DNA from: Chloroflexota bacterium
GTDB taxonomy: Bacteria; Chloroflexota; Anaerolineae; UBA1429
Reading direction: 5' to 3'
DNA: 64,000 nt
NCBI GenBank assembly: GCA_019873625.1
Contig: JAIOAW010000004.1
Coordinates: 33,324 to 97,323 of the forward strand
The translations under genes and the position numbers were made by a program. The notes beneath the pieces were generated by a model. The model saw nothing but the letters and a program-made list of their open reading frames with translations, made no database searches and was not told the origin of the DNA. Shown here piece by piece: positions 13,946 through 44,707 of this stretch. Position 1 is the first letter of the stretch. Every line of letters begins with the position of its first letter.

Positions 13946-14027
13946 AACCCCTCCCAGGGATGACGATATGCCGATATTACGCCATAAAGGCCCCGGCCAT
14001 CTTCGCCGAGGCCTTTTTCTCTCCCTA

Positions 14028-14100
14028 TGGGCGAAACAGGTCTCGAACCCGTGACCTCTTCCTTGTAAGGGAAGCGCTCTCCCAACTGAGCTATTCGCCC
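14028..14100 (-). tRNA. tRNA-Val(TAC)
   Basis: Reverse complement GGGCGAATAGCTCAGTTGGGAGAGCGCTTCCCTTACAAGGAAGAGGTCACGGGTTCGAGACCTGTTTCGCCCA folds as a cloverleaf with anticodon TAC. CCA is not encoded. Confidence 0.97.
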
Positions 14101-14115
14101 TCGCCAAGTAACCAT

Positions 14116-14144
14116 AGTTTACCATATTCAGGGGGATACGTCAA
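14116..14144 (-). promoter_or_regulatory. sigma70 promoter of tRNA-Val
   Basis: TTGACG-17 nt-TAAACT on the minus strand, ending 15 nt upstream of the tRNA 5' end. Confidence 0.75.
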
Positions 14145-14173
14145 AGATTCGTGGTCCTTGCGCCATTTTCCGC

Positions 14174-14202
14174 TTGCGCCTTTTGTGTGAGCGCCCTATA
14201 CT
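14174..14202 (+). promoter_or_regulatory. sigma70 promoter of the first cluster gene
   Basis: TTGCGC-17 nt-TATACT, back-to-back with the tRNA promoter. Confidence 0.6.
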
Positions 14203-14240
14203 GGAGGGTGAATGCCTTATCATCTCGTAAAGGAGCCGAA

Positions 14241-15317
14241 ATGAAGACTTTTAAGGTCGCGCTGGTTGGGGCGGGCACCATCGCCAAGGACCATTACCTT
14301 CCACAAATCAAGGCGATGGAGAACGCCGAGTTGGTGGCCGTGGCCGATAACGTCGAGGCCGCGGCGCGGTTTGCCGCCGAAAAGTTCGGCATCCCCCATT
14401 GGTTCACGCGCATTGACGACCTCCTCGATAAGGTGGATTGCGATATCGTGGTGGATACCGCCGCCATCCAGGCGCACTATGAGATCAACCTGAAGGCGCT
14501 TCAGGCGGGCAAACACCTCTATTCGCAAAAACCCCTGGCCCTTACCGTGGAAGAAGCCACCACCCTTATCGAGACGGCCAAAGCGAAGGGCCTCAAGATC
14601 AGCGCCTCGCCCATCCATATGCTGCGCCCCACGGTGCAGGCCATCCGCAAGATGGTGCGTGAGGGCGTCATCGGCAAGGTGCAGTGGGCGCGCATCCGCT
14701 CCTCGCACGGCGGGCCAGAGTATTATCAACGTTCGCGCCTCTCGGACCCCTCTTGGTTCTATCAGCCCGGCGCGGGGCCGATCTTTGACCTCGGCGTGCA
14801 TGGCCTGCACACCATCACGGGAATCCTTGGGCCAGCCAAGGCCGTTACCGCGATGTCGGGCATCACGGTGCCCACGCGGGCCGCGGTGGGTTGCGGCGGC
14901 GAGTACGAAGGCGTGCCCTTTGAAGTCAAGATTGACGATTGCAGCCTGGCCCTGCTCGACTTTGGCAACAACACCTTTGCCTTTATTGATATGACGTACT
15001 GCGTCAAAGATTACGAGGGGCCGAATTTGGAGATCTTTGGCAGCCGCGGCGTCATCAGCCAGACGCGCAAAGGAGGCTCCGCGACGCGCCTCTTCCGCGC
15101 GATGCCGGAGGATGGTGGCCCCGGTTGGGAAGAACCCCCTATGCCCGAGGAGCCGCGCTATCAATCCATCGGCGTCAAAGACCTGATAGATGCCATCATC
15201 GAGGGGCGTGACCCGGTGCTGACGCCCGAGCATGCCCGCCACGTCATCGAGATTATGAACAAGTGCTACCAGGCCGCGCGCGAACGCCGCACGTTGGATA
15301 TCGAGACGACGTTCTGA
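14241..15317 (+). CDS. Gfo/Idh/MocA-family oxidoreductase (#1)
   Basis: VGAGTIA Rossmann motif, GKHLYSQKPLA and GAGPIFDLGVHGL; AAGGAG RBS. Confidence 0.9.
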   Translation: MKTFKVALVGAGTIAKDHYLPQIKAMENAELVAVADNVEAAARFAAEKFGIPHWFTRIDDLLDKVDCDIVVDTAAIQAHYEINLKALQAGKHLYSQKPLALTVEEATTLIETAKAKGLKISASPIHMLRPTVQAIRKMVREGVIGKVQWARIRSSHGGPEYYQRSRLSDPSWFYQPGAGPIFDLGVHGLHTITGILGPAKAVTAMSGITVPTRAAVGCGGEYEGVPFEVKIDDCSLALLDFGNNTFAFIDMTYCVKDYEGPNLEIFGSRGVISQTRKGGSATRLFRAMPEDGGPGWEEPPMPEEPRYQSIGVKDLIDAIIEGRDPVLTPEHARHVIEIMNKCYQAARERRTLDIETTF

Positions 15318-15359: not shown

Positions 15360-15422
15360 ATCCCTTTGGGCGCGCCAAGCGGCGCGCCTACCCAATACTC
15401 GCCGCGCGCGGAAGGAGAGAAG

Positions 15423-16472
15423 ATGACTCAGCAAGTAGTTCGGGTGGGCATCGTAGGGATGGGCATCGGCAGGGCCAATGGTCGGGCCATTCAGGCCGAC
15501 CCGCGAGGTGAGGTCGTGGCCCTGTGCGACCTTATCCCCGAGAGGATGGAGGAATTCGCCAAAGAACTGCCGAGGCCGGTCAAGTTCTACACTGACTACA
15601 AAGCGATGTGCCAAGACCCCGATGTGGATGCCGTGATGGTGGGCACGCCGAACCAGTGGCATGTGCCCGTGGCCCTGGAGGCGGTGAAAAACGGCAAGCA
15701 CGTCCTCGTTACCAAGCCTTTGGCCGATTCGGAAGAGGCCGCCCGCGAACTCGTAGAGGCCGCAGAGGCCGCCGGCGTGGTGAATATGATGTCTCTGGGG
15801 ATGCGCTTTTCAGACCAGGTGATGTACCTGGAGGCCCTGCGCCAGCAAGGGTTCTTTGGCGAGTTGTACTATGCCCATGCCCGAGCCTTGCGCCGCAGTC
15901 GCATCCCCGATTGGAACCTGGGGTTCATCCAGAAAGGCGGTGGGGCCTTTCGCGATATGGGGGTGCACGTGCTCGATGCGTGCTGGTCGCTCTTGGGCAA
16001 GCCCAAGCCGGTGGCCGTGTTGGGCGTGGCCGGGGCCAAGTTCGGCCCGCGCGGCCTGGGGTATTGGGATTTTCGCCAGCCCAAGCCCGAATACTATACC
16101 CAATTCGCGGCTGATGATTACGGCGGAGGGTTCATCCTCTTTGAGGGGGGCCTGGGGATGCAGGTGGAATCCTTCTGGGCGGGCCACCACGAGCACATCG
16201 AGATGACGCAAATCGAACTCTTTGGCACGGAGGCCGGCGCCAAACTACGCCCGCTCACCCTCTACCGCACGGTGAACGGCGCGCCGCAGGATATCGTGGT
16301 GAACGTGCCCAAAAAGGCCGAGGGATTCAGCGAGGTGGCCAAGCACTTTATCGCCTGCATTCTGGATGGCATCCCCTGTGAGGCGCCTTTGCGCCACGGC
16401 CTCATCGTGCAGCAGATGATGGAGGCGCTCTTGAGGAGCGCGGAGACGGGCAAAGAGGTTCGTTTGGATTGA
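15423..16472 (+). CDS. Gfo/Idh/MocA-family oxidoreductase (#2)
   Basis: VGMGIG, GKHVLVTKPLA and GGGAFRDMGVHVLD; GGAG RBS. Confidence 0.9.
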   Translation: MTQQVVRVGIVGMGIGRANGRAIQADPRGEVVALCDLIPERMEEFAKELPRPVKFYTDYKAMCQDPDVDAVMVGTPNQWHVPVALEAVKNGKHVLVTKPLADSEEAARELVEAAEAAGVVNMMSLGMRFSDQVMYLEALRQQGFFGELYYAHARALRRSRIPDWNLGFIQKGGGAFRDMGVHVLDACWSLLGKPKPVAVLGVAGAKFGPRGLGYWDFRQPKPEYYTQFAADDYGGGFILFEGGLGMQVESFWAGHHEHIEMTQIELFGTEAGAKLRPLTLYRTVNGAPQDIVVNVPKKAEGFSEVAKHFIACILDGIPCEAPLRHGLIVQQMMEALLRSAETGKEVRLD

Positions 16473-16566: not shown

Positions 16567-17613
16567 ATGGACAAAGTGCGCGTGTGCATCGTAGGGATGG
16601 GCATTGGCCGGCCGAACGGCCGGGCCATCGCGGCGAACCCGCGCGGCGAGGTGACGGCGCTGTGCGACCTCATCCCCGAGAGAATGGAAGAGTTCGCCAA
16701 GGAACTGCCGGGGCCAGTCAAGTTCTATACCGACTACAAGGAGATGTGCCAGGACCCGGATATTGACGCGGTGTTCGTGGGGACGCCGAACCAGTGGCAT
16801 GTGCCCATCGCGCTGGAGGCCGTGAAGAACGGCAAGCACGTGATGGTTACCAAGCCCTTGGCCGATTCGGAAGGCGCGGCCAAGGAGTTGGTAGAGGCCG
16901 CGGAAGAGGCCGGCGTGGTGAATATGATGTCGCTCTCGATGCGTTTTTCGGACCAGGTGCAGTACCTGGGCAAACTGCGCACGCAGGGCTTTTACGGCGA
17001 CCTGTACTACGCCCACGCCCAGGCGCGCCGGCGCAGTCGCATCCCCGATTGGAACCTGGGGTTCATCGAAAAAGGCGGCGGGGCCTTCCGCGATATGGGG
17101 GTGCACGTGCTCGACTCCGTCTGGTGGCTTTTGGGGATGCCCAAGCCGGTGGCTGCTCTGGGGGTAGCCGGGGCCAAGTTCGGCCCGCGCGGCCTGGGGT
17201 ATTGGGATTTTCGCCAGCCCAAGCCCGAGTTCTATACCCGCTTTGCGGCCGATGACTATGGCGGAGGGTTCATCCTCTTTGAGAATGGCACGGGGCTGCA
17301 GGTGGAATCCTTCTGGGCGGGCCACCACGGCGAGATGGATGCGACGCAGATCGAACTCTTTGGCACGGAGGCCGGCGCCAAACTGCGCCCGCTCACCCTC
17401 TACCGCACGGTGAATAACGCGCCGCAGGATATCACGGTAACCCTGCCTGAGACCAAGCGCACCTCCTGGAATAACATCGCCGACCATTTCATCGCCTGCA
17501 TTCTGGATGGCATCCCCTGTGAGGCGCCTTTGCGGCACGGCCTCATCGTCCAGCGGATGATGGAGGCCATCCTCAAGAGCGGCGAGACGGGTAAAGAAGT
17601 GCGGTTGGATTGA
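16567..17613 (+). CDS. Gfo/Idh/MocA-family oxidoreductase (#3), close tandem paralog of #2
   Basis: Same motifs as #2 and long identical stretches at both protein and DNA level. Confidence 0.9.
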   Translation: MDKVRVCIVGMGIGRPNGRAIAANPRGEVTALCDLIPERMEEFAKELPGPVKFYTDYKEMCQDPDIDAVFVGTPNQWHVPIALEAVKNGKHVMVTKPLADSEGAAKELVEAAEEAGVVNMMSLSMRFSDQVQYLGKLRTQGFYGDLYYAHAQARRRSRIPDWNLGFIEKGGGAFRDMGVHVLDSVWWLLGMPKPVAALGVAGAKFGPRGLGYWDFRQPKPEFYTRFAADDYGGGFILFENGTGLQVESFWAGHHGEMDATQIELFGTEAGAKLRPLTLYRTVNNAPQDITVTLPETKRTSWNNIADHFIACILDGIPCEAPLRHGLIVQRMMEAILKSGETGKEVRLD

Positions 17614-17655: not shown

Positions 17656-18450
17656 ATGAAACTCGGGTTTATCGCTTCGAACGACCTCGACGGCCTCGAG
17701 GCGGATGCGAAATTTGCCGCCGAGAATGGCTTTGAGGGGTTGGAGTTCAACTACTGGGCGGCCTTTGCCGACTTAACGCCAGAGACCGTGGGCAAGATGG
17801 CCGCCATCCTCGATCGCTACGGCGTGGCTTGCTCTTCCTTCGGCCTGTGGGGCTGGAACCACACCGCCCCAGATCCGGCCGAGCGCGAGCGGAGTTTGCA
17901 GATGCTCGACCGGGCCATTACCTACGCGGCGGCGCTGCGGGCACCCATCTTTATCACGGGCGGCGGGCAGACGGGCGGCGACTTGGCCAGCAACGTCAAG
18001 GCCTTTTGCGAGGTCTTTCCGCCGTACATCGAAAAGATGGAAAAGAACGGGATGAAGTTCGCGGCCTATGCCGTGCACGGCAATTCCTTCTTTGAGAACA
18101 TCGAGTGCTACAAGGCCGTGTGGGAGAAATTCCCCAACGTGGGCATCAAACTCGACCCGCTCAACATCATCCACCACGGAGATGACCCCTACATCTGGCT
18201 GCGCGATTATGCCCACCGCGTGTATGAGGTGCACATCAAAGAGGGTATCTTTATGGATGGCAAACTCGTCTCTCAGCCGGCGGCGGGGATGGGAGATGTC
18301 CACTGGGGCAAGGTGATGGCCTTCCTCTATGAGGTCAATTATGACGGCTATCTGATTATGGAGCCGCACGGGCCTATCTGGAGCCGTGGGCCGATGAAGC
18401 GCAAGATGCTCCTTTTGAGCAAAAAGTACCTGAGCCAGTTCTTGCTGTAG
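17656..18450 (+). CDS. Sugar phosphate isomerase/epimerase (xylose-isomerase-like TIM barrel, AP_endonuc_2 family)
   Basis: GFEGLEF, IKLDPLNII, YEVHIKE, PAAGMGDVHWGKVMAFLYEVNYDGYLIMEPH metal-binding pattern. Confidence 0.85.
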   Translation: MKLGFIASNDLDGLEADAKFAAENGFEGLEFNYWAAFADLTPETVGKMAAILDRYGVACSSFGLWGWNHTAPDPAERERSLQMLDRAITYAAALRAPIFITGGGQTGGDLASNVKAFCEVFPPYIEKMEKNGMKFAAYAVHGNSFFENIECYKAVWEKFPNVGIKLDPLNIIHHGDDPYIWLRDYAHRVYEVHIKEGIFMDGKLVSQPAAGMGDVHWGKVMAFLYEVNYDGYLIMEPHGPIWSRGPMKRKMLLLSKKYLSQFLL

Positions 18451-18535
18451 ATCGGGGTGCAAACGTGGTGGCGGCCTAACGCCGCCCCCACGAGAGGAAT
18501 TCGCCTTCACCGCGTTGAAGAAAGGAAAGGACAAG

Positions 18536-19669
18536 ATGAGCAAGACCTATCGCCTTGGAGCCATCGGGTTCGCCCATATGCACATCAACCACCTGCTCGA
18601 TGAGTTCAACAAACTCCCGAACATCGAATGGGTGGCCTGTGCAGATAACACGCCCGCCGTGCCTTCACGGACGATGAAGCCCTCCGGCCGGCTGATGAAC
18701 CTCAAGTATGCCCATGAGACGATCGGCATCCCCAAGGTGTACGATTGCTACCATGAGATGCTTGAGAAGGAAAAGTTCGACATCATCATCTTCTGCCCCG
18801 AGAATGCCAAGCATGGCGAGGTGGCGGAGGCCATCGCCAAGGCCGGCGCGCATATGGTTACCGAAAAGCCGATGTCGGCTAGCCTTTCGGATGCGCTGCG
18901 TATGGTGCGCGCCTGCAAAAAGTACAAGGTGGAGTTGATGGTGAACTGGCCCACCACCTGGTCGCCCGCGGTGCGCAAGGCCAAGGAACTCATTGACTCG
19001 GGCATCATCGGCGATGTGTGGGAGGTCAAGTGGCGCAACGGGCCTTCGATGGGGCCGCTCTCCTACTCCACGGGCGACCAAGCCTGGCTGCCCGAGGAAA
19101 AGGGCGAGGAATGGTGGCACCAGGCCGCGCCGGGCGGCGGCGCCTTGCTGGACTATTGCTGCTACGGCGCGTGCCTTTCGCGGTGGTATATCGGCAAGCC
19201 CGCGGTGGCGGCCACGGCGATGAAGGCCAACTTCACCAGCCACTATGGCGATGCGGATGATAACGCCATCATCGTGGTGCGCTATCCGGAGGCGTTTACC
19301 ATCCTCGAGGCGACGTGGACCACCTGGCATACGGGCATCCCCACGGGGCCGATCATCTACGGCACCAAGGGTACCCTGGTGGTGACGAATATGGTCAAAG
19401 AGGGGCACCGCGTGCCGGTGGTGCAGGTATTCACCACGCGTGGCTACGGCTACGAGCCGGACCAGGTCGTGGAGGGCGATCCGTTGCCCGAGGGGCGCGC
19501 GACGCTGGCCGAGGAGTTCATCTACCACCTGGAGACGGGCGAGCCGTTGCACCCCACGCTGGAGATGATGCAGAACCTGCAAGTGATGGCCATTTTGGAT
19601 GCGGGCATCCGCTCTGCGGCCTCGGGCAAGGTGGAACTCGTCAACGACGCGAACTGGTGCATTGGCTAA
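18536..19669 (+). CDS. Gfo/Idh/MocA-family oxidoreductase (#4; DYCCY / C-terminal WCIG subgroup)
   Basis: IGFAHMH, HMVTEKPM, GGGALLDYCCYG; ends NDANWCIG. Confidence 0.88.
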   Translation: MSKTYRLGAIGFAHMHINHLLDEFNKLPNIEWVACADNTPAVPSRTMKPSGRLMNLKYAHETIGIPKVYDCYHEMLEKEKFDIIIFCPENAKHGEVAEAIAKAGAHMVTEKPMSASLSDALRMVRACKKYKVELMVNWPTTWSPAVRKAKELIDSGIIGDVWEVKWRNGPSMGPLSYSTGDQAWLPEEKGEEWWHQAAPGGGALLDYCCYGACLSRWYIGKPAVAATAMKANFTSHYGDADDNAIIVVRYPEAFTILEATWTTWHTGIPTGPIIYGTKGTLVVTNMVKEGHRVPVVQVFTTRGYGYEPDQVVEGDPLPEGRATLAEEFIYHLETGEPLHPTLEMMQNLQVMAILDAGIRSAASGKVELVNDANWCIG

Positions 19670-19704: not shown

Positions 19705-19733
19705 TTGACAAGGAACCCGCCTTCGCCTACAAT
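19705..19733 (+). promoter_or_regulatory. Consensus sigma70 promoter of the glycyl radical enzyme gene
   Basis: TTGACA-17 nt-TACAAT. Confidence 0.8.
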
Positions 19734-19832: not shown

Positions 19833-22076
19833 ATGAGTGTAGAGACGACCGTGCAAGAAATCACCTATCAGATGCGCTTGGATTCGCTGCGCGAAACCAA
19901 GATGCGCCACACCCGCGAGAAGCAAGAGATCGTCGGTTCGATGGATCATGACGACTGGGCCTTGATCCTACCGCCGCCCGACCGGCGCAAGGTCGTCAAG
20001 ACGATTAGCACCTCGGGTATGCCGATCACCGATGTCCTCATCGAGGGGTACGAGCCGGTGCCCAACCACCCGAGCGGCGGGTTCTTTGGCCCCAAGGCCT
20101 GCGGCGAGAACTTTGGCGCGCTCTTGCGCGCTCACCCGCCCTATGTGGACCCCATGGCCTCGCTTTTGGGCGGGTACAACGTCAACTTTTCGTCGTACCG
20201 CAAGGTCCGCTGGAACCCCGATTTCGACTACTCGCACCTCCAGCCTTACATTGACAAGTACAAGTTGATCTCGGGCATCGGCGCCTCGCAGCATTTTTGC
20301 CAGGATCTCGAAATCGGCCTGAAACTGGGTTGGGGCGGCCTGCTGGATAAGATTCGCTTCTACCGCGCCCAGCACGGCCCCGAAAAGGCCGATTTCTACG
20401 ACGGCCTGGAGGCCATCGTCACCGGAATGCAGGCTTGGATCAAGACGAATGTGGATGAGGCCCGCCGCTTGGCCGAAAAAGAGGAAAACCCGCAACTGCG
20501 CGAGAACCTTCTCAAACTGGCCGATATGAACGAGCGCCTCATCACCGAGCCGCCGCAGACCTTCCATGAGGCCTGCCAGTGGATCGCCTGGTATCAGATG
20601 GCGGCCCGTATGTATAACGGAAGCGGCTCGTTGGGGCGGCTGGATGTCATCCTCCAGCCGTATTATGAGCGCGACGTGGCCGCCGGCATCTTGACGGATG
20701 AAGAGGCCATCTTCCACATCGCGAACATCCTCCTTCTGGATACGGCTTACATCCAGTTGGGCGGCCCCTTGCCCGATGGGCGCGACGCCACGAGCAAGGT
20801 CTCGTACTTGGTGCTCGAGGCGGCGCATCGCCTGCGCATCCCCGCCAATATCGGCGTAACCGTGGGGCCGAGCACAGACCCTGGCCTGCTCCGCCGCGGC
20901 GTGGAGATTATGTTCCAAGACCGGACGGGCATCCCCAAGTTCTTGGGCACCGATAACATCATCGAGGGCTTTGCCCGCAACGGGTATGACCTCTCGATGG
21001 CGCGCCAACGCGCTTATTCCGGCTGCCACTGGTTCGCCATCCCCGGCCGCGAGTACACCTTGAACGACTGCGTCAAGATCAACCTGGGCGCGGTGTTCGA
21101 GGTGGCCTGGGAAGAGATGATGCAGGATGTCTCCACGGCGAGCGTGGAGAAACTGTGGAACCTCTTCCAGTACCATCTCAAAGAGGCCATCAAGTGGTTG
21201 GCCCGCTGCCTAGACTTTCATATGGAGCATATGCATCAGGTCTTCCCCGAACTCGTGCTCGATCTCTTGTGCTATGGGCCGATCGAGCGCGGGGAGGATG
21301 CCTCGCACGGCGGGGTGGATTACTACAACCTCTGCGTGGATGGCGCGGCCTTGGCCACGGTTACCGATTCCTTTGCGGCGCTCGAGCAGCGCATCGAAAA
21401 GGAAAAGGTGATGACCTGGGAAGAGATCAAGCGCTATATCGAGACGAACTGGGCCGGCCCTGAAGGCGAACGCGCCCGGCTGATGATGCACAACATCCCG
21501 CGCTTTGGCTCCGGCGGATCTCGGGCCGATGAGTGGGCCGTCAAGATCACCGAGGTCTTTACGCGGCTCGTGAAAGAAAGCCCCACGCCGAACGGCTTCA
21601 ATATGATTCCGGGCTACTTCTCGTGGGCAAACACCATCCCTATGGGCAAGGTGCTCAAGGCCACGCCGAATGGCCGCCGCGCGGGCGAGCCGATTTCTCA
21701 TGGGGCGAACCCCGACCCCGGCTTTCGCAAAGACGGGGCGCCGAGCGCCATGGCCGTGGCCATCGCGAGCGTCCAGCCCGGCTGGGGCAACTCGGCCCCG
21801 ATGCAGATCGAACTTGACCCCGGCATCACGCGCGATGAGGAGGGCGTCGAGAATATCGCCAACCTCATCAAGGCCCATATGGACCTCGGCGGCACCCAGA
21901 TCAATATGAACGTGATGGATGCGGACAAGGTGCTGGAAGCGCATAAAGACCCCAGCAAATATCCCGACCTCGTGGTGCGGGTGACGGGCTTTAGCGCCTA
22001 CTTTGCCAGCCTCTCGCCCGAGTTCCGCCAACTCGTGGTTGATCGCATCATCCGCGAACGAGAGGCGTCGAGTTAG
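19833..22076 (+). CDS. Glycyl radical enzyme (PFL-like superfamily) of unknown specificity
   Basis: C-terminal radical domain YPDLVVRVTGFSAYF (Gly719), ATPNGRRAGEPISHGANP, SLGRLD..LQPYYERD, and Cys loop AYSGCHWF (Cys398). Confidence 0.92.
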   Translation: MSVETTVQEITYQMRLDSLRETKMRHTREKQEIVGSMDHDDWALILPPPDRRKVVKTISTSGMPITDVLIEGYEPVPNHPSGGFFGPKACGENFGALLRAHPPYVDPMASLLGGYNVNFSSYRKVRWNPDFDYSHLQPYIDKYKLISGIGASQHFCQDLEIGLKLGWGGLLDKIRFYRAQHGPEKADFYDGLEAIVTGMQAWIKTNVDEARRLAEKEENPQLRENLLKLADMNERLITEPPQTFHEACQWIAWYQMAARMYNGSGSLGRLDVILQPYYERDVAAGILTDEEAIFHIANILLLDTAYIQLGGPLPDGRDATSKVSYLVLEAAHRLRIPANIGVTVGPSTDPGLLRRGVEIMFQDRTGIPKFLGTDNIIEGFARNGYDLSMARQRAYSGCHWFAIPGREYTLNDCVKINLGAVFEVAWEEMMQDVSTASVEKLWNLFQYHLKEAIKWLARCLDFHMEHMHQVFPELVLDLLCYGPIERGEDASHGGVDYYNLCVDGAALATVTDSFAALEQRIEKEKVMTWEEIKRYIETNWAGPEGERARLMMHNIPRFGSGGSRADEWAVKITEVFTRLVKESPTPNGFNMIPGYFSWANTIPMGKVLKATPNGRRAGEPISHGANPDPGFRKDGAPSAMAVAIASVQPGWGNSAPMQIELDPGITRDEEGVENIANLIKAHMDLGGTQINMNVMDADKVLEAHKDPSKYPDLVVRVTGFSAYFASLSPEFRQLVVDRIIREREASS

Positions 22077-22081
22077 CACGT

Positions 22082-22121
22082 AATCCCCCTTGCGGGGCTT
22101 GACAAACCCGCAAGGGGGATT
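22082..22121. terminator. 15-bp perfect stem-loop after the GRE gene, with TTGACA in the loop
   Basis: AATCCCCCTTGCGGG-gcttgacaaa-CCCGCAAGGGGGATT. It may act as a terminator or RNA stabiliser and also as a promoter (CATTAT lies 17 nt after TTGACA). Confidence 0.6.
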
Positions 22122-22177
22122 CATTATTCTAACCAAGCACGTTTCGCGTGCTCCAAAACTGCTTTTAGGAGGGTATC

Positions 22178-23290
22178 ATGGCAAAGGACAAGTTCAAGGT
22201 TGCGATTATCGGGGCCGGTATGATCGCCAACGCGGCACACATCCCTGCGTGGAAGGACCTCCCCAACGACGTCGAGATCGTGGCCGTTATGGATGTCTTT
22301 GAGGCGAATGCCCAGAATACGGCCAAGATGCACGGCATCCCCAAGGCCTACACCAATGCCGAAAAGATGCTCGAAGAGTGCAAGCCCGATATCGTCTCGG
22401 TATGCACGCCCAACTGCTATCACAAGCAATACACCATTCTGTCGCTCGAGGCGGGGGCGCACGTCTTGTGCGAAAAGCCCGTGGCCACGAGCGCGCGCGA
22501 TGCCGCCGAAATGTTCGATACCGCCGAGCGCGTGGGCAAACTCCTCTTTGTGGGGCAAACGATGCGCTGGAGCGGCAACGTCATCGCGGCCAAAGAGCTT
22601 GTGGATCTGGGCAAACTGGGCGAGATGTACTATGCCGAGACGGCCTCGCTGCGGCGGCGCGGCGTGCCCAAGTGGGGTATGTTCCATATGAAGGAGCACA
22701 ACGCGGGCGGCCCGCTCTATGATATCGGCGTGCACTCGCTCGACGCCCTTTTGTGGATTATGGGCAACCCCAAGGTGATTGCCGCGAGCGGCGCCACCTA
22801 CCTCAAGATCGCCAACCGCGATGAGGGCCTCAGGACGTCTCTCGCCGATAGCGGCGCGCCGCTGGGCCTGTTCACGCCACGCCCCTATGATTACCGCGAG
22901 TTCAACGTCGAAGATTTTGGCGTGGGCTTTATGCGGCTCGAAGGCGGCGCCACCATCTACCTCAAGGCCTCTTGGGCGGCGAACATCGCCGAGGGGATGG
23001 GCGGCACCTTCATCTTGGGCACCGAGGGCGGCCTTAAACTCCAGCCGCTGACCTATGTGACCAATATGGGGAGTTATATGGTGGATGTTACGCCGCACGT
23101 GCCGCAGGAGCGCCAGGTGGCCTTCTTTGGCCATTTCAAGGAGTGCGAGCACTTTGTGCGGGTCATCCGCGGCGAGGAAAAGGAACTCTTGGTCAAGCGC
23201 GCCGAGGCCCTGAACGTGATGCGCGCGCTGGATGCCATCTACAAATCCGCCGAAGTGGGGCATGAAGTCCCGGTCGAGGACGTGAACTGA
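22178..23290 (+). CDS. Gfo/Idh/MocA-family oxidoreductase (#5)
   Basis: IGAGMIA, AHVLCEKPVA and GGPLYDIGVHSLD. Confidence 0.9.
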   Translation: MAKDKFKVAIIGAGMIANAAHIPAWKDLPNDVEIVAVMDVFEANAQNTAKMHGIPKAYTNAEKMLEECKPDIVSVCTPNCYHKQYTILSLEAGAHVLCEKPVATSARDAAEMFDTAERVGKLLFVGQTMRWSGNVIAAKELVDLGKLGEMYYAETASLRRRGVPKWGMFHMKEHNAGGPLYDIGVHSLDALLWIMGNPKVIAASGATYLKIANRDEGLRTSLADSGAPLGLFTPRPYDYREFNVEDFGVGFMRLEGGATIYLKASWAANIAEGMGGTFILGTEGGLKLQPLTYVTNMGSYMVDVTPHVPQERQVAFFGHFKECEHFVRVIRGEEKELLVKRAEALNVMRALDAIYKSAEVGHEVPVEDVN

Positions 23291-23348
23291 GGCTCGCCCG
23301 CCCTGTGCGGGCGAGGTGCACACACAAGCAAGGGAAAGGAGTCTCGCT

Positions 23349-24476
23349 ATGGCCAAGAAATACCGCGTCGGGATTATCGGGTTTGGGCATATGCACGTGA
23401 ACAACGTGGCCCAACTCTATGCGGATCATCCGCAGGTGGAGTGGGTGGCCTGCGCCGATACCAAGCCGCTCAAGCCGGAACTGCGTGTGGCCCCCTATAC
23501 GCGCCAGTGGAACCAAAAGTTCCTTATGGAGAAACTCGGCATCCCCAAAAAGTACGATTGCTACCACGAGATGCTCGAGAAAGAAAAGTTTGACATCATC
23601 ATCGTGCAAAGCGAGAACGCCCAGCACCCGGATATCGTCGAGGCCTGCGCCGCCAAGGGCGTGAACGTCTGCGTGGAAAAGCCGATGGCGATGTCCCTTT
23701 CGGATGCCCTGCGTATGGCGCGCGCCGTGCGGGCCAACGGCACGAAACTCATCGTCAACTGGCCGCTCACCTGGAGCCCGGCGGCCCGCAAGGCCAAGGA
23801 ATTGATTGACCAGGGCGTCATCGGGCGGGTGCTGGAAGTCAAGTGGCGCTCCGGCCATACCGGCCCCCTCGGCCCGGGTGCGCATCACGCCGGCGTGAGC
23901 GACACGGCGGCCCCGATGACCGGCCCCGAGCGCGCGGCCACTTGGTGGCATCAAGAGGCGGCCGGCGGCGGCGCCTTGCTTGATTACTGCTGCTACGGCG
24001 CGATGGTCTCGTATTGGTACATCGGCGAGCCGGGCGTGGCCGCGGTGGGTATGAAGGCTAACCTCAACAGCGAGTGGGGCGATGCCAACGATAACGCCGC
24101 CCTGGTGATTCGCTTCCCGCGGGCTATGGCGCTCCTCGAAGGCTCGTGGACGACCTGGGATCACGGCGTGCCGGGCGGGCCGATCGTCTATGGGCAGACG
24201 GGCACCCTCGTGGTGGAGACGGTAGAAGGCAAGCAGCGCGTGCGCCTGGAGCGCGGCCATGGGCAGACCACCATTTATGAGCCAGACCCCCTGCCGAAGG
24301 GGCGCCATGACGTGGCCCACGAGTATATCCATCACCTGGAGACGGGCGAACCGGTGCACATCACGCTCGACCTCGACTTTAACCTGCAGGCGATGGCCAT
24401 CCTCGATGCGGGTGCGCGCGCCGCGGCCTCTGGCAAGATGGAACTCGTGAACAACGAGACCTGGTGCATCGGCTGA
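23349..24476 (+). CDS. Gfo/Idh/MocA-family oxidoreductase (#6; DYCCY/WCIG subgroup)
   Basis: IGFGHMH, VCVEKPM, GGGALLDYCCYG; ends NNETWCIG. AAGGAG RBS before MAKKYR. Confidence 0.88.
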   Translation: MAKKYRVGIIGFGHMHVNNVAQLYADHPQVEWVACADTKPLKPELRVAPYTRQWNQKFLMEKLGIPKKYDCYHEMLEKEKFDIIIVQSENAQHPDIVEACAAKGVNVCVEKPMAMSLSDALRMARAVRANGTKLIVNWPLTWSPAARKAKELIDQGVIGRVLEVKWRSGHTGPLGPGAHHAGVSDTAAPMTGPERAATWWHQEAAGGGALLDYCCYGAMVSYWYIGEPGVAAVGMKANLNSEWGDANDNAALVIRFPRAMALLEGSWTTWDHGVPGGPIVYGQTGTLVVETVEGKQRVRLERGHGQTTIYEPDPLPKGRHDVAHEYIHHLETGEPVHITLDLDFNLQAMAILDAGARAAASGKMELVNNETWCIG

Positions 24477-24598: not shown

Positions 24599-25726
24599 AT
24601 GGCCAAAAAATATCGCGTCGGGATCATCGGCTTTGGGCATATGCACGTGAATAACGTCGCCCAACTCTATGCGGCGCATCCGCAGGTGGAGTGGGTAGCC
24701 TGCGCCGATACGAAGCCGATGAAGCCCGAGTTGCGCGTGGCGCCGTACACCCGCCAGTGGAACCAGCAGTATCTCATGGAGAAACTGGGCATCCCCAAAA
24801 AGTACGATTGCTACCATGAGATGCTGGAAAAGGAAACCTTCGATATTATGATCGTGCAGACGGAAAACGCCCTCCACCCTGAGGTGGTGGAGGCCTGCGC
24901 GGCTAAGGGCGTGAACGTCTGCGTAGAAAAGCCAATGGCCGTCTCCCTTTCGGCGGCGCTGCGTATGGTGCGCGCCGTCCAAAATGCGGGGACGAAACTC
25001 CTCGTCAACTGGCCGCTTACCTGGAGCCCGGCGGCCCGCAAGGCCAAGGAATTGGTTGACCAGGGCCTCATTGGGCGGGTGCTGGAAGTCAAGTGGCGCG
25101 CGGCGCACACTGGCCCCCTCGGCCCGGGCGGTATGCACACGGGCGTGAGCGGCACCACAGAACCGATGACCGGCCCCGAGCGCGCCGCCACTTGGTGGCA
25201 TCAAAGCGCCGCGGGCGGCGGGGCTATGCTCGACTTTTGCTGCTACGGGGGGATGATCTCGCGTTGGATCATCGGCGAGCAGGCCGTGGCCGCCGTGGGC
25301 TTTAAGGCGAACCTCGATAGCACCTGGGGAGACGCTGAGGATAACGCCGTGATCTTGGTGCGCTTCCCCAAGGCGATGGCCGTGTGGGAAGGCTCGTGGA
25401 CGACCTGGGATAGCGGCGTGCCGGGCGGCCCTATCATCTATGGGGAAACGGGCACGCTCGTGGTGGAAACGCGCGAGGGCAAACCCGTGGTGCGCCATGA
25501 GCGCGGCGGCGGGCGCACGACGATTTATGAGGCCGAGCCTCTCCCCCAGGGCCGGCATGATGTGGCCTATGAGTACATCCACCATCTGGAGACGGGCGAG
25601 CCGCTCCATCCCTCGCTGGAGATGATGTTCAACCTGGAGGTGATGGCCATCCTCGATGCGGGGGTGCGTTCGGCGGCGAGCGGCCGGGTGGAACTCGTCA
25701 ATAACGCGCATTGGTGCATCGGCTAA
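24599..25726 (+). CDS. Gfo/Idh/MocA-family oxidoreductase (#7), close tandem paralog of #6
   Basis: N-terminal half nearly identical to #6; GGGAMLDFCCYG; ends NNAHWCIG. Confidence 0.88.
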   Translation: MAKKYRVGIIGFGHMHVNNVAQLYAAHPQVEWVACADTKPMKPELRVAPYTRQWNQQYLMEKLGIPKKYDCYHEMLEKETFDIMIVQTENALHPEVVEACAAKGVNVCVEKPMAVSLSAALRMVRAVQNAGTKLLVNWPLTWSPAARKAKELVDQGLIGRVLEVKWRAAHTGPLGPGGMHTGVSGTTEPMTGPERAATWWHQSAAGGGAMLDFCCYGGMISRWIIGEQAVAAVGFKANLDSTWGDAEDNAVILVRFPKAMAVWEGSWTTWDSGVPGGPIIYGETGTLVVETREGKPVVRHERGGGRTTIYEAEPLPQGRHDVAYEYIHHLETGEPLHPSLEMMFNLEVMAILDAGVRSAASGRVELVNNAHWCIG

Positions 25727-25769: not shown

Positions 25770-25950
25770 CTGTGGGAGCCTAGGGAAGCGATTCCCTCTT
25801 TTTTGAAGCGAAAATTGCTTCGAGGCCAAACCTTTTCTGTGCGCATAGCCCCGGAGCGCGCTGTGTGGGGCCAAAATGGCCTTGCATTGCCCTTGGCCAA
25901 TCGAGTAAGATAGGCGTTGCGCGCCGAATCTCATCTTTGAGGAGGTGGGT

Positions 25951-27084
25951 ATGACCAAGACGTACCGCATCGGGGCCTTGGGGTTTGCCCAGGGTCACAT
26001 TTTTGGCTTTGTGCAATCTTTCCTGAGGCTCTCCAACGTAGCCATCGAGTGGGTGGCCTGCGCCGATACCGTCCCTCCCAAACCCTCGCTTCTTGGCCGC
26101 ACGGAGAAGGCCGTCAAGCGCTTTCAAGAACTCACGGGCTGCACACGCGCCTACGAGCGTTGGGAAGAGATGTTGGAAAAGGAACGCTTCGACATCATCA
26201 TTTCTTGCCCGGAAAATGCCCGTCACGGCGAGGTGGCTGAGGCGATCGCCGCCCACGGCGCCCATATGATCACGGAAAAGCCGATGGCCGCGAGCCTTGC
26301 GGATGCCCTGCGGATGGTGCGCGCCGCTCAGGCGAACAACGTCTCCGTGATGATCAACTGGCCCACGACGTGGAACCCGGCCGTGCGTAAGGCGAAGGAG
26401 TTGATTGACCAGGGTGTCATCGGCGAGGTGTGGGAGGTCAAGTGGCGCAACGGCGGCTCGATGGGGCCGCTCACCTATTCGGAGCCGGAGCCAAGCGGCC
26501 CTGAAAAGGGCGCGGAATGGTGGCACCAGGCGGCTCCGGGGGGTGGGGCGCTCTTGGATTACTGCTGTTATGGGGCCTGCCTGGCGCGGTGGTATTTGGG
26601 CCAGGGCGCTGTGGCGGCTTACGGCCTGCGCGCCAACATCACGAGCCACTATGGCGATGCGGATGATAACGCGGTCATCACCGTGCGCTTCCCCAAGGCG
26701 CTGGCCATCCTTGAGGCGACGTGGACGACCTGGAACGTCGGCGTGCCCACGGGGCCGATCATCTACGGCACACGGGGCGCTCTGGTGGTTACGCGCCCGC
26801 GTGGCGCACCGGAGGGGCAGGCGCGCCAAGTGGTGGAGGTCTACACCTCGCGGGCGCACGGCCTGGTCGAACCGGATGAGATCATCGTGCCGGATCCCTT
26901 GCCTGAGGGGCGCGCCACCCTTGCGGAGGAATTCATCCATCATCTGGAGACGGGCGAGCCTCTGCACCCCACGCTCGATATGATGTTCAACCTAGAGGTG
27001 CAGGCCATTTTGGATGCGGGCATCCGTTCGGCGCAAAGCGGCCGGCTCGAACTCGTGAACAACGCCACCTGGTGCATCGGCTGA
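25951..27084 (+). CDS. Gfo/Idh/MocA-family oxidoreductase (#8; DYCCY/WCIG subgroup, closest to #4)
   Basis: LGFAQGH, HMITEKPM, GGGALLDYCCYG; ends NNATWCIG. GAGGAGG RBS; TTGCAT-18-TAAGAT promoter-like sequence at 25882-25911. Confidence 0.88.
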   Translation: MTKTYRIGALGFAQGHIFGFVQSFLRLSNVAIEWVACADTVPPKPSLLGRTEKAVKRFQELTGCTRAYERWEEMLEKERFDIIISCPENARHGEVAEAIAAHGAHMITEKPMAASLADALRMVRAAQANNVSVMINWPTTWNPAVRKAKELIDQGVIGEVWEVKWRNGGSMGPLTYSEPEPSGPEKGAEWWHQAAPGGGALLDYCCYGACLARWYLGQGAVAAYGLRANITSHYGDADDNAVITVRFPKALAILEATWTTWNVGVPTGPIIYGTRGALVVTRPRGAPEGQARQVVEVYTSRAHGLVEPDEIIVPDPLPEGRATLAEEFIHHLETGEPLHPTLDMMFNLEVQAILDAGIRSAQSGRLELVNNATWCIG

Positions 27085-27114: not shown

Positions 27115-28632
27115 ATGACCAAGGCCCAAGGAGCACACGAATTCTCTTCTGGCGATAAACGGTACCTACTGGCCCTCGATATCGGTTCCACCACGGTGCG
27201 AGCCGTCCTGTTTAATGTGGAAGGGTTGCCTGTGGCGGAGGCCTACCGGGAGCCTCCGGTGCATTACCCCGGCGCGAACCGCGCTGAGATTGACGTCACG
27301 CTGCGTTGGGAGGCCTCGGTGGAGGTCATCCGCGAGGTGCTGGCCAAGTCGGCCATTTCGCCGGCGGAGATTGCGGCCATCGGCCTGACGGGCCTTCTCC
27401 ACGCGCTGACGCCCATTGACCGCGAAGGCCGCCCTTTGGCGCGGGCTATGCTGTGGATGGATCAACGCTGCCAGCCCCAGGTGGAGTGGATGGTGCGCGA
27501 ACACGCGGATATCCTGGAGCGCGAGGTCGGCTCCACGCGGGCCAGCACCACGTGGTCTGCCCCGAAATTGCGCTGGATTTACGAGCACCAGCCGGACCTT
27601 CTTGAGCGCACCTACAAATTTATGCCCACGAAGGATTACATTCGCTTTCGCCTGACGGGGACGATCGAGACGGATCCCTCCGAGGCGGGCGGCACGATGC
27701 TCTTTAACCGGGAGACGGGCGATTGGTCTCGCCCGATGCTCGAACTGGTGGGCGTGCCCTTGGAAAAGATGCCCGTCATCAAGCCCTCTTCCACCGTGGT
27801 GGGCGGCGTTACGCGCGAGGCGGCCTTGGCCACCGGCCTGCAAGAGGGCACGCCGGTGGTCATCGGCGGGGGAGATACCAAGTGCACTCGCCTGGGCGCG
27901 AACAGTGAGGGAAACGGCCGCGCTTGCCTTTATATCGGCACGGCGGCCTGGACGGCGGTGCCCTCCCGCCGGCGCCAGGCCTTTGGGGCCACGGCCACCA
28001 CGGGCGCCGCGCTCAAGTGGATTACCTCTGTGGTGGGGCTGAACGATCCTTCCTCGCCCGGCGAGGGGTATGCGCAACTCTTGGCTGAGGCAGAGCGCGT
28101 GCCTTCCGGCGCGGGGGGGCTTCTTTTCTTGCCCCACCTGATGGGCGAGCGCGGCCCCCAGCCGAACGCCAAGGCCACGGGCACCTTTTTCGGGCTGACC
28201 TTGGGCCACGGCCGTGCCGAACTGGCCCGGGCCGTGCTGGAGGGGTGCGCCTTTCATCTGCGCTCCATCTTGGAAAACATCAGCGAGGTGCCCATTGAAG
28301 AGATGACCCTCGTCGGGGGCGGAGCCAAGAGCGCCCTTTGGCGGCAGATCATCGCCGATGTGACGGGCATTCGCCTCTTGGTGCCCCGCGTTTTGGAGGC
28401 CGGCGCGCTGGGCGCGGCCATTCTGGCAGGGGTGGGTGTGGGCATTTACCCCAGCGAGCAGGAGGCGGCGGATCGCGTCGTCCAGTTCGTCGAACGGCGC
28501 GAACCGGATGCGGAACGGCACGCCTTCTACAGCCAAATCTACCCCTATTATCTCGACCTGGAAGCGCGCGTCGCGCCGCTCTATGGGCAAATTCCGATGA
28601 AGATGCGAGAGGAGGAAGTACCATGCGCGTAA
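27115..28632 (+). CDS. FGGY-family carbohydrate kinase (xylulokinase-like)
   Basis: LALDIGSTTVRA, AMLWMDQR, KLRWIYEHQPD, TDPSEAGGTMLF, LFLPHLMGERGP, ARAVLEG, VGGGAKSALWRQIIADV. Confidence 0.92.
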   Translation: MTKAQGAHEFSSGDKRYLLALDIGSTTVRAVLFNVEGLPVAEAYREPPVHYPGANRAEIDVTLRWEASVEVIREVLAKSAISPAEIAAIGLTGLLHALTPIDREGRPLARAMLWMDQRCQPQVEWMVREHADILEREVGSTRASTTWSAPKLRWIYEHQPDLLERTYKFMPTKDYIRFRLTGTIETDPSEAGGTMLFNRETGDWSRPMLELVGVPLEKMPVIKPSSTVVGGVTREAALATGLQEGTPVVIGGGDTKCTRLGANSEGNGRACLYIGTAAWTAVPSRRRQAFGATATTGAALKWITSVVGLNDPSSPGEGYAQLLAEAERVPSGAGGLLFLPHLMGERGPQPNAKATGTFFGLTLGHGRAELARAVLEGCAFHLRSILENISEVPIEEMTLVGGGAKSALWRQIIADVTGIRLLVPRVLEAGALGAAILAGVGVGIYPSEQEAADRVVQFVERREPDAERHAFYSQIYPYYLDLEARVAPLYGQIPMKMREEEVPCA

Positions 28633-29600
28633 TTGCCATTGTGAACGGCTATACGGGGGCACTCTGCCTGCAAGAGTTGGTGGATCAGGGTGATGAGGTG
28701 GTGGCCGTGGTAACAAGCCCCGGCGACCCCAGGCCCGGCGCCGACCCCAAGACCTCGGTCAAGTTGACGGCCGACCGCAACTTTTTGCCGGTCTATCAGC
28801 CGCCCATCACCGAGGTGAACAACCCGCAGTTCGTCGAAAAACTGCGCAAGTTAGAACCGGACCTCATCGTCTCGATGCACTATGCGCAAATCTTTAAAGA
28901 GCCGCTCTTGAAGCTCCCCAAACTCGGATGCGTCAATGAGCATCCCTCGCGCCTGCCGGCGGGCCAGGGGATGACGCCCTCTTACTGGCATATGATCATC
29001 GGCGATGATCGCAACTGGATTACCCTGCATTACCTCGACCCCGGCATTGATACGGGCGACATCATCGCCCAGGGGTCCGTGGAGATCACCCCCGACGATA
29101 CGGGGATGACTACGAGCCGCAAACTCTCGGAAGAGGGGCACCGCATCTTTGCCGAGAACCTGCCGCTCATCCGTGAGGGGCGGGCGCCGCGCATCCCGCA
29201 AAAGGAGTGGGGCAGGATGCACGGCATCAAACGGAGTTACGTCTCTTGGAAGCCTCACCACGCCTGTATGGATTGGGGCAAATCGGCCAAGATGTTGGCG
29301 CTCCATGTGCGCACGCTGACCATCCCACGCGGGCAGACCACGTGGGTGGGGCCGGCCTATACCTTCTTGGGCGGCAAAAAGGTTACCGTGTATAGCGCCC
29401 AAGTGCTGGAGGACCCCCGCTGGTGCCCGAAAGAGGCAACGCCGGGCGAGGTGCTGGGCCTAGGCGGAGGCGGCCTGCTGGTGATGACGGGCGAAGGAAT
29501 CTTGCAGATTAGCGATGCGGATATCGAGGGGGCCGAGGGCCAAGGGCTGGCCGGCCTTCTGCCTTACCTTTCGACCACCCTGCCCATTCGTTTGGGGTAA
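28623..29600 (+). CDS. Formyltransferase of the Fmt/ArnA-N type, probably not the initiator-tRNA Fmt
   Basis: VNEHPSRLPAGQGMTPSYW (variant of NxHPSLLPxxRG), LHYLDPGIDTGDII and a C-terminal Fmt_C-like domain. The start overlaps the kinase stop. Confidence 0.8.
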   Translation: MRVIAIVNGYTGALCLQELVDQGDEVVAVVTSPGDPRPGADPKTSVKLTADRNFLPVYQPPITEVNNPQFVEKLRKLEPDLIVSMHYAQIFKEPLLKLPKLGCVNEHPSRLPAGQGMTPSYWHMIIGDDRNWITLHYLDPGIDTGDIIAQGSVEITPDDTGMTTSRKLSEEGHRIFAENLPLIREGRAPRIPQKEWGRMHGIKRSYVSWKPHHACMDWGKSAKMLALHVRTLTIPRGQTTWVGPAYTFLGGKKVTVYSAQVLEDPRWCPKEATPGEVLGLGGGGLLVMTGEGILQISDADIEGAEGQGLAGLLPYLSTTLPIRLG

Positions 29601-30693: not shown

Positions 30694-30807
30694 CCGGCCT
30701 TTGGACGGCGGGGTTGATGAAAGGGTATCGGGGGCGCAGGCCTGAGGGGCCTGCCTTGCCGGGGCATCCCGCGCAAGCCACATTTCGCATCAGAAGAGAG
30801 GTGCACA

Positions 30808-31887: not shown

Positions 31888-31968
31888 GGTGCTGCACGCT
31901 GGGGCAGGCCGCTCGAGCGGCCTGCCCCACAGAACGCATTGCGAAATCTTTCAGAAGAGGCTTATACC

Positions 31969-33012: not shown

Positions 33013-33072
33013 AGTCGAGTCAAAACTTGGGGCGCTCAACGATGGGCGCCCCACGGAAAGGAAAGAGATACG

Positions 33073-44561: not shown

Positions 44562-44678
44562 GGGGGTTCCTCCTGTAAGGGTCCGTGATGCTATGGGTAA
44601 ACCGAACCGCGCGCGCGGCCTTTGCCCAAAGATAGAAGACGCCCCATCGAAGGGGCCTCTTGGAACGCTACCATCTCT

Positions 44679-44707
44679 ATTATACACGGAATCTCGCCGG
44701 GACGCAA
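44679..44707 (-). promoter_or_regulatory. sigma70 promoter of nrdDG
   Basis: TTGCGT-17 nt-TATAAT on the minus strand. Confidence 0.7.

Follow-up and report, generated by a model that had tools for sequence, protein, structure and literature searches.

A glycyl radical enzyme with tryptophan in place of the catalytic-loop glutamate, encoded among sugar-oxidising genes of an Anaerolineae bacterium

Among the oxygen-sensitive glycyl radical enzymes (GREs) related to pyruvate formate-lyase (PFL), a C-X-E motif, with a Glu two residues after the catalytic Cys, is retained by all six C-O eliminases, CutC, the C-S lyases and three isomerases, as compiled in a review of June 2026 (PMC13450708), and the characterised decarboxylases likewise keep it, according to a structure paper of September 2026 (PMC13598205). 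This Glu hydrogen-bonds or deprotonates the substrate (PMC13450708, PMC8473560, PMC13598205) and in addition forms a hydrogen bond with the Cys-loop backbone (PMC13450708, PMC13598205); the x is usually Val or Ile and is given no catalytic role (PMC13450708, PMC8473560). Two loop cysteines are found only in PFL and TdcE, and a Trp loop is not mentioned in the same review (PMC13450708). The closest described systems are the GRE isomerases PflD and YbiW (PDB 8yjo, 8id0 and 8id7), which open the ring of 1,5-anhydromannitol-6-P or 1,5-anhydroglucitol-6-P and in which Glu433 or Glu443 deprotonates the C2 hydroxyl (PMC13450708), and the B12-independent glycerol and propanediol dehydratases (1r8w, 5i2g and 9rco). 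The present analysis concerns a stretch of 64,000 nucleotides (nt), hereafter the window, from a Chloroflexota bacterium of the class Anaerolineae (assembly GCA_019873625.1, contig JAIOAW010000004.1, positions 33,324 to 97,323), in which a GRE gene at 19833..22076 on the plus strand encodes a protein of 747 amino acids (aa), named P0001 here, with Trp at the position of the C-X-E Glu. The reading preferred, at a probability of roughly 0.55, is that P0001 is a functional GRE of an uncharacterised C-x-W branch and would carry out radical C-O cleavage of a neutral sugar-ring or polyol compound. Since the gene lies among sugar-oxidising genes and the Trp-for-Glu branch has so far gone unstudied, P0001 probably performs an undescribed step of anaerobic sugar breakdown.

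The gene was identified from its open reading frame (ORF) and translation, Pfam, an AlphaFold2 model and Foldseek. The translation of 19833-22076 matched the PFL-like domain (PF02901, 1.8e-92) and the Gly_radical domain (PF01228, 2.7e-15). The residues S396-G397-C398-H399-W400 (21018..21032, plus strand; TCC GGC TGC CAC TGG), embedded in RQRAYSGCHWFAIPGRE, were placed at the tip of the Cys loop from alignments, model and conservation, and the glycyl radical motif R716-V-T-G719-F-S721 (21978..21995, plus strand) is part of the C-terminal sequence VVRVTG719FSAYF. A sequence-only reading of the window had named SGCHW at 21018-21032, Cys398 as the thiyl-radical residue and an intact RVTGFS motif with Gly719; DNA and translation bore out all of these coordinates, residue numbers and motifs. 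When aligned with phmmer, C398 (21024-21026, plus strand) paired with the Cys of the GCVE loops of Escherichia coli PflD and CutC, the GCTE loops of HpsG (6lon) and IseG (5ymr) and the GCIE loop of IslA, and W400 paired with the C-X-E Glu of the same five enzymes; the Glu two residues after the catalytic Cys is not present in P0001, in which the loop reads C398-H-W400. The AlphaFold2 model, built from 50 family sequences and read as confidence values and secondary structure, had a pLDDT of 92.4 and a pTM of 0.92. It shows SGCHW as a five-residue hairpin tip between strands 394-395 and 401-402 and T718-G719 as the tip of a second hairpin between strands 714-717 and 720-723, so that the two modelled tips match the finger loops of GREs. 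Foldseek aligned the model with about 50 GRE chains at TM values of 0.75–0.82 and identities of just 18–23%; these included HypD and, at TM values of about 0.8 and identities of 20–22%, PflD, the glycerol and propanediol dehydratases and CutC, with PflD as the best match (TM 0.80). C398 was found to be the sole Cys conserved in all 85 full-length superfamily representatives described below, which leaves no other Cys as a candidate for the radical residue. C398 is predicted, from these alignments, the hairpin tip and conservation, to be the thiyl Cys of P0001, in agreement with its earlier assignment, and G719 its radical Gly. P0001 combines the barrel and glycyl radical domain, RVxG[FYW], the loop Cys and an activase, as do the enzymes of the PFL-like superfamily, and its retention of Gly719 separates it from the aminoacyl radical enzymes, in which the radical site is not Gly. 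An unrelated superfamily representative (P0251) has RVAAY as its radical motif, with Ala for Gly, as in the recently described aminoacyl radical enzymes.

Conservation was evaluated first among the 120 closest homologues (68–98% identity), which come mostly from metagenome-assembled genomes (MAGs) of Chloroflexi/Anaerolineae. GCHW was found in at least 93 of them and GCNW in one, the other 27 having been missed by the search pattern for other reasons, and RVTGFS was present in 120 of the 121 sequences when the query is included. In the alignment of 50 sequences with identities down to 48%, C398 and W400 were invariant and H399 was kept in at least 90%. As judged from this conservation, the GCHW motif is under selection and no chance feature. 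The wider superfamily was represented by 83 full-length matches from 1.84 billion representatives, to which the query and its paralogue from the same genome were added, and the resulting 85 rows comprised 25 C-x-W loops (GCHW, GCNW, GCQW, GCFW, GCGW, ACPW and VCNW), 51 C-x-E loops and nine others. In the IQ-TREE phylogeny, all 25 C-x-W rows fell on one side of a single split with an SH-aLRT of 100, apart from the 51 C-x-E rows and the nine others; on this tree the C-x-W proteins are one monophyletic, well-supported branch, separate from all C-x-E GREs. P0001 carries the marks of the branch, namely Trp at Cys+2, Asp at Cys+14, P-E at 472-473, RVTG and a place within the monophyletic group. W400 was conserved in 100% of the C-x-W rows, versus Glu in 100% of the C-x-E rows. 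D412 (Cys+14; 21066..21068, plus strand), a candidate substrate-binding or acid/base residue that we take to occupy the D447 position of glycerol dehydratase, was likewise found in 100% of the C-x-W rows, versus nine of the 51 C-x-E rows, and E473 of the P-E motif (21249..21251, plus strand), a candidate relocated base, was invariant in the branch and variable in C-x-E enzymes. E407, Y408, W167 and T718 were each kept in 92% of the C-x-W rows, T718 giving the branch its signature of RVTG rather than RV[AS]G, and the branch lacked the insert found in C-x-E enzymes after residue 303. C156, on beta1, was considered as a second catalytic Cys and discarded, as it is kept in 46 of 50 GCHW orthologues and not in the sister C-x-W families.

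The sequence-only reading had seen in the His-Trp pair, in place of Val-Glu, a pointer to a different reaction class such as His-assisted isomerisation, ring opening or C-C lyase chemistry. The exchange itself is real, lies in the catalytic loop and is absent from every characterised GRE class (PMC13450708, PMC13598205). His as the defining, catalytic change was not sustained: the Cys is followed by H, N, Q, F, G or P across the branch, in which Trp is kept in 100%, and by this comparison the branch-wide change is the Trp, with His confined to the GCHW orthologue group. Because the post-Cys residue varies and the Trp does not, a His-centred mechanism is not the shared chemistry of the branch. 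That H399 nevertheless replaces the Glu as key catalytic base or acid of a new isomerisation, ring-opening or C-C lyase reaction would be consistent with its conservation among GCHW orthologues and with its modelled place at the hairpin tip, adjoining the thiyl Cys, but this proposal is decidedly unlikely, given that Asn, Gln, Phe, Gly or Pro stand at the same position elsewhere in the branch, including the GCNW paralogue in the same genome, that Asn, Phe, Gly and Pro are unable to act as bases, and that the x of C-x-E is assigned no catalytic role (PMC13450708, PMC8473560). As for a different reaction class in general, the claim is a reasonable one and held in part: P0001 does belong to a separate uncharacterised branch outside the C-X-E enzymes, but its beta1 His is kept and points to kinship with eliminases and isomerases. 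This residue, H154 (20292..20294, plus strand), lies at a site on beta1 that commonly contacts the substrate in GRE eliminases, so that P0001 shares this feature with the C-X-E enzymes, and it aligns with IslA Q193, the equivalent of HypD H160 and CutC D216 (PMC8473560). His was kept at this site in 88% of the C-x-W rows and in 45 of the 51 C-x-E rows. His164 of glycerol dehydratase presumably marks the same site, the mapping tested being that to IslA Q193/HypD H160/CutC D216. Given the retention of H154, eliminase- or isomerase-like C-O cleavage, with the base relocated or unnecessary, appears no less likely than a wholly different class.

P0001 was then compared with the described families. 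Against the full-length GRE models of NCBIfam it scored 105–259 bits, with cut-offs of 678–1150, and against the HypD, CutC, HpsG/HpfG and indoleacetate/hydroxyphenylacetate decarboxylase equivalogs 144–239 bits, with cut-offs of 1000–1150. The best PDB sequence match was E. coli PflD, with a phmmer value of 1e-59, whereas true members of a family score below 1e-200. No paper characterising the C-x-W branch was found in full-text searches of the literature, and no solved or curated GRE falls within it; by these searches the branch is uncharacterised, and the sequence-only reading's own reservation, that GCHW might be common in a clade already characterised, found no support in the literature or the family models. 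Similarly to P0001, PflD and YbiW belong to sugar-catabolic loci and share the barrel, the geometry of the Cys and Gly loops and the need for an activase; they act on sugar rings, and PflD is the best match of P0001 in both sequence and fold. In contrast, identity is about 22%, C-X-E is kept where P0001 has Trp, the locus of P0001 has no phosphotransferase system (PTS) or phosphosugar context, and P0001 is about 30–60 residues shorter, lacking the insert after residue 303. The glycerol and propanediol dehydratases are comparably near in fold (TM 0.79–0.80), retain the beta1 His found as H154 and recall the polyol-related operon at the locus, whereas the Glu435 position of glycerol dehydratase is Trp in P0001, the score against the PFL2-3 subfamily model is 258 bits with a cut-off of 678, and no microcompartment or aldehyde-handling genes accompany P0001. 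It was considered whether P0001 could be an ordinary diol or polyol dehydratase-type 1,2-eliminase with its base moved to E473, E407 or D412, so that only the substrate would be new. The retained beta1 His, the branch's own invariant acidic residues, the polyol dehydrogenases and sugar kinase of the operon, and a fold as near to these dehydratases as to PflD are all consistent with such an enzyme. Nevertheless, it is judged unlikely, since every characterised eliminase, isomerase and decarboxylase keeps the C-X-E Glu, the bulky Trp across a whole deep branch would imply a remodelled pocket, and E473 is a candidate base only.

The GRE gene lies within 16 consecutive plus-strand genes that also encode ten Gfo/Idh/MocA proteins, a TIM barrel, an FGGY kinase, a formyltransferase-like protein and two Zn-dependent polyol dehydrogenases; coordinates below are on the plus strand unless stated otherwise, and assignments are by Pfam. 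The array starts with three Gfo/Idh/MocA genes (14151-15317, 15366-16472 and 16567-17613), followed by a xylose-isomerase-like TIM barrel (17656-18450; best PDB match 2.5e-06, no close solved relative) and a more distant copy of Gfo type B (18515-19669). Directly downstream of the GRE is a Gfo/Idh/MocA gene of type A (22178..23290), the product of which is a full-length homologue of DgpA (7xr9), at 2.4e-61 over residues 4-360 by phmmer against the PDB. Two tandem type B genes (23316-24476 and 24599-25726) and another more distant type B copy (25945-27084) come next; for the four type B paralogues the best match to a solved dehydrogenase was 3.4e-13, with weak similarity to scyllo-inositol dehydrogenase. 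The array continues with the xylulokinase-like FGGY sugar kinase (27115..28632), with 319 bits and thus below the cut-off of 380 bits, and the formyltransferase-like gene (28623..29600; Formyl_trans_N and Formyl_trans_C), the start of which was inferred from an orthologue of 322 aa and which overlaps the stop of the kinase gene. A Zn-dependent polyol dehydrogenase (29638-30693), with threonine, ketose, xylitol and sorbitol dehydrogenases as PDB neighbours, two Gfo genes (30808-31887 and 31939-33012) and a second Zn-dependent polyol dehydrogenase (33073-34101) complete it. On the minus strand, divergent from the first Gfo gene, an ORF of 622 aa (12257-14125) with coding-like base composition at third codon positions (GC3) gave no Pfam match. 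Promoter-like sites of the sigma-70 type, consensus matches only, were found at 19705..19733 (TTGACA-17-TACAAT, 11/12), about 100 nt before the GRE start, and at 22099-22127 (10/12), after the GRE and before the DgpA-like gene; the GRE, flanked by these sites, may be a transcription unit of its own inside the Gfo array. The neighbours of the GRE, though not the GRE itself, can be compared with DgpA-DgpBC C-glycoside cleavage and the 3-keto-glycoside pathways, in which a Gfo 3-dehydrogenase works with a xylose-isomerase-like TIM-barrel lyase: a DgpA homologue is next to the GRE, and TIM barrels occur in the array, in the operon of a same-family genome (G150) and beside the GCNW paralogue, but no radical enzyme is required in those pathways.

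The gene context of GCHW enzymes was also evaluated in other genomes. Neighbour clusters were sorted with Pfam, as several large ones proved to be antisense ORFs of GRE or Gfo genes and one mixed URO-D-like proteins with antisense Gfo frames, which Pfam resolved. Orthologues of the type A Gfo (55–58% identity) were found beside GCHW enzymes in Lentisphaerae, Anaerolineae and Verrucomicrobia, and those of type B (50–68%) in Chloroflexota, Clostridiales, Lentisphaerae and Verrucomicrobia (loci L041, L050, L077, L084, L090 and L092, plus G150); no other dehydrogenase partner of GCHW enzymes is conserved as widely as type B, which spans four phyla. The FGGY kinase also adjoins the GRE in L041, L050, L094 and G150. 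The G150 operon is compact, with type B Gfo, GRE, FGGY kinase, formyltransferase-like protein, Zn-dependent dehydrogenase, Gfo, Zn-dependent dehydrogenase and TIM barrel, and its genes are 51–68% identical to those of the window; the formyltransferase-like orthologue (68%) has the same operon position, and three of the four genes of the 29638-34101 block have orthologues of 51–68% identity in the same order, the Gfo gene at 30808-31887 being the one with no G150 orthologue. From this comparison, the array of the window looks like a core operon expanded by Gfo duplication. The whole ten-Gfo array was discarded as the conserved context, since homologues of 75% identity occur without it; the conserved core consists only of type A and type B Gfo, FGGY kinase, formyltransferase-like protein, Zn-dependent dehydrogenase and TIM barrel. 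Other neighbours of GRE loci included CUT1 sugar ABC transporters and GH130, GH31, GH4, beta-helix, MR_MLE, ROK and AraC genes. A Firmicutes MAG presented the order ROK regulator, activase, GRE, GH130 and MFS transporter, and Faecalicatena fissicatena the order GH31, URO-D, phosphotransacetylase, activase, GRE and URO-D. Bacteroidota and Ignavibacteria showed an activase followed by the GRE, a URO-D-like protein, a sugar-binding protein and two permeases. Proteins of this URO-D-like kind, some 365 aa long, are encoded directly downstream of GCHW enzymes in both groups and in some Chloroflexi, and they flank the enzyme in Faecalicatena (L066 12217-13341; L022 5885-6979; L093 6943-8064 and 12129-13466). 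Their main group has the pattern W-Y-H-N-C-G ... I-C-(T/S)-K-G-N, which recalls that of Zn-dependent MtaA-type methyltransferases; no corrinoid protein was seen near these genes. As far as gene neighbours indicate, all of these contexts are carbohydrate-related, and none is related to aromatics, hydrocarbons or amino acids.

For the preferred reading, radical C-O cleavage by a C-x-W enzyme, the following course is proposed. The activase encoded on another contig of the genome (C8, described below) would install the radical on Gly719, and the conserved anatomy suggests a relay from Gly719 to Cys398 and on to a C-H bond of the substrate, for which a neutral sugar-ring or polyol compound is the most likely candidate. 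Stacking of Trp on sugar rings is a general feature expected of carbohydrate-binding sites, and W400, located where all solved relatives have a substrate-facing residue, may provide an aromatic stacking platform for the sugar ring. H399, for which sister families have Asn or Gln, would confer specificity through hydrogen bonding and would not be a universal catalyst. The general acid for the leaving oxygen would still be H154 on beta1, the retention of which suggests that this oxygen continues to be protonated as in the dehydratases. The base would have been relocated, with the branch-specific acidic residues D412, E407 and E473 as candidates; alternatively, no base would be needed, the DgpA-like 3-dehydrogenase having made a keto-sugar first. 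The reaction is most likely radical C-O cleavage by ring opening or dehydration, as in PflD and YbiW, after which the adjacent polyol dehydrogenases and the FGGY kinase would take over the product. Several points weigh against this reading. The promoter-like site of the GRE means that co-transcription with its neighbours may not hold; the closest homologues, with 75% identity, occur in other sugar contexts, next to MR_MLE, MFS, beta-helix and GH4 genes and without Gfo genes or an activase; the constant partner in Bacteroidota and Ignavibacteria is the URO-D-like protein and not a dehydrogenase; and 3-keto-sugars are already cleaved non-radically, through beta-elimination by TIM-barrel lyases, which makes the need for a radical enzyme questionable. 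Beyond a functional GRE of the C-x-W branch with carbohydrate-related neighbours, the reading is inferred throughout. Offered tentatively is a more specific version, in which the C-x-W enzymes would be a base-free class acting on 3-keto sugar rings oxidised by DgpA-like enzymes, or on neutral anhydro- or ether-sugars, with the Trp stacking on the ring. The thiyl radical would trigger ring opening or C-O or C-C scission beyond that of the ionic 3-keto-sugar lyases, and return of the hydride would fall to the second Gfo partner and the polyol dehydrogenases. If true, a radical route of anaerobic carbohydrate breakdown would have gone unrecognised although widespread in sediments, digesters and the gut, Bathyarchaeia included. 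In any case, Trp in place of Glu throughout a deep and well-populated branch is a strong pointer to chemistry or substrates new to the superfamily, and from the conserved association with DgpA-like 3-dehydrogenases, polyol dehydrogenases and a sugar kinase a short, testable list of substrates can be drawn up.

The 120 closest homologues are named 'formate acetyltransferase' or 'pyruvate formate-lyase' in the databases. PFL (PflB, TdcE) does share the superfamily and the domains with P0001, but has a Cys-Cys pair instead of the single loop Cys and aligns well in the C-terminal domain only, and P0001 scored 105 bits against TIGR01255, with a cut-off of 994. On these grounds the 'formate acetyltransferase' or PFL annotation of the family is a mislabel, and, as the branch carries the PFL label everywhere, formate-producing fermentation has probably been wrongly assigned in metabolic reconstructions of Anaerolineae, Bathyarchaeia, Ignavibacteria and others. 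The related possibility of C-C bond chemistry, either as a PFL-like lyase with an acyl product, a hydroalkylase of the X-succinate synthase kind or a decarboxylase, has in its favour that, of the characterised PFL-like GREs, PFL and the X-succinate synthases are those without the C-X-E Glu, that the F. fissicatena GRE lies beside phosphotransacetylase and 2-oxoacid:ferredoxin oxidoreductase genes, and that partners resembling one-carbon transfer enzymes recur, formyltransferase-like here and URO-D-like elsewhere. It is considered improbable, as the loop has no second Cys, the TIGR01255 score is far below its cut-off, the C-x-W branch stands apart from representatives with non-Glu loops such as GCVG, and the characterised decarboxylases keep C-X-E (PMC13598205). 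Regarding the small subunits of X-succinate synthases, no ORF was found in the gaps of 163 nt and 101 nt that flank the GRE, which leave no room for such genes, and no conserved small neighbour was found in a clustering that took ORFs of at least 90 aa. The X-succinate synthases BSS and MASS were among the weakest PDB matches of P0001 (1.8e-20 and 7.7e-26, respectively).

The whole genome (2.76 Mb, 97.6% complete) was searched for activases and further GREs. Three PFL-like GREs were found, namely P0001, the GCNW paralogue on contig C3 (C3:43882-46134, minus strand; L096 11882-14134), which is about 50% identical to P0001 and has the motif RVTGYS, and a canonical GCVE enzyme (C8:42319-44682, plus strand). 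The neighbours of the paralogue are a xylose-isomerase-like TIM barrel (C3:43016-43816), two SBP_bac_1 sugar-binding proteins, a permease and two NAD-dependent epimerases. Exactly one activase of the PFL-activating enzyme type was present (C8:28895-29857, minus strand; TIGR02494, 357 bits, above the cut-off); it adjoins none of the three GREs, lying beside parB and 13 kb from the GCVE enzyme. In 50 of 82 homologous loci elsewhere an activase is the same-strand neighbour of the GRE, and the C8 activase is 52–69% identical to most activases beside GCHW enzymes, with values that track the GRE identities. By this orthology it is the cognate activase of P0001, separated from its GRE in this genome, and it probably serves all three GREs. 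The 64-kb window contains no activase other than NrdG, which could suggest that P0001 is a degenerate or non-catalytic relic without an adjacent activase. Such a relic is hardly credible, however, with an intact frame, invariant Gly719 and Cys398, a near-consensus promoter-like site before the gene, identities of 57–75% across phyla that indicate strong purifying selection, and the cognate activase on C8; as an orthologue of the GCHW-adjacent activases is present there, P0001 is no orphan. NrdG was discarded as the activase of P0001, being only about 28% identical to GRE activases and given that a cognate one exists. It forms with NrdD, which has an ATP-cone domain, an anaerobic ribonucleotide reductase pair on the minus strand (41731-44687, NrdG at 41731-42417), and this pair confirms an anaerobic lifestyle.

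The distribution of the branch was determined with a pattern scan of one genome per species, which gave at least 588 confirmed relatives; phyla and identities were taken from the best 80 of these, with 53–75% identity. At least 12 phyla including archaea were represented among these 80: Chloroflexota (Anaerolineae, Thermoflexales and Caldilineaceae), Bacteroidota, Ignavibacteriota, Planctomycetota, Acidobacteriota, Spirochaetota, Latescibacterota, Lentisphaerota, Verrucomicrobiota, Poribacteria and Gemmatimonadota, as well as Clostridia and several Bathyarchaeia. The Clostridia include the cultured F. fissicatena KCTC 15010, which offers experimental access to the branch. Within the window's own class, evenly sampled, 24 of 201 genomes (about 12%) and 18 of 120 genera had a member. 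Identity to P0001 was 62–67% in genomes of the same family and 74–75% in some other families of the class, suggesting lateral transfer or old paralogy. Five Bathyarchaeia MAG contigs (L056, L063, L074, L075 and L080) carry GCHW enzymes 60–66% identical to P0001 with activases adjacent, and these sequences suggest that the GCHW gene has been transferred between bacteria and archaea.

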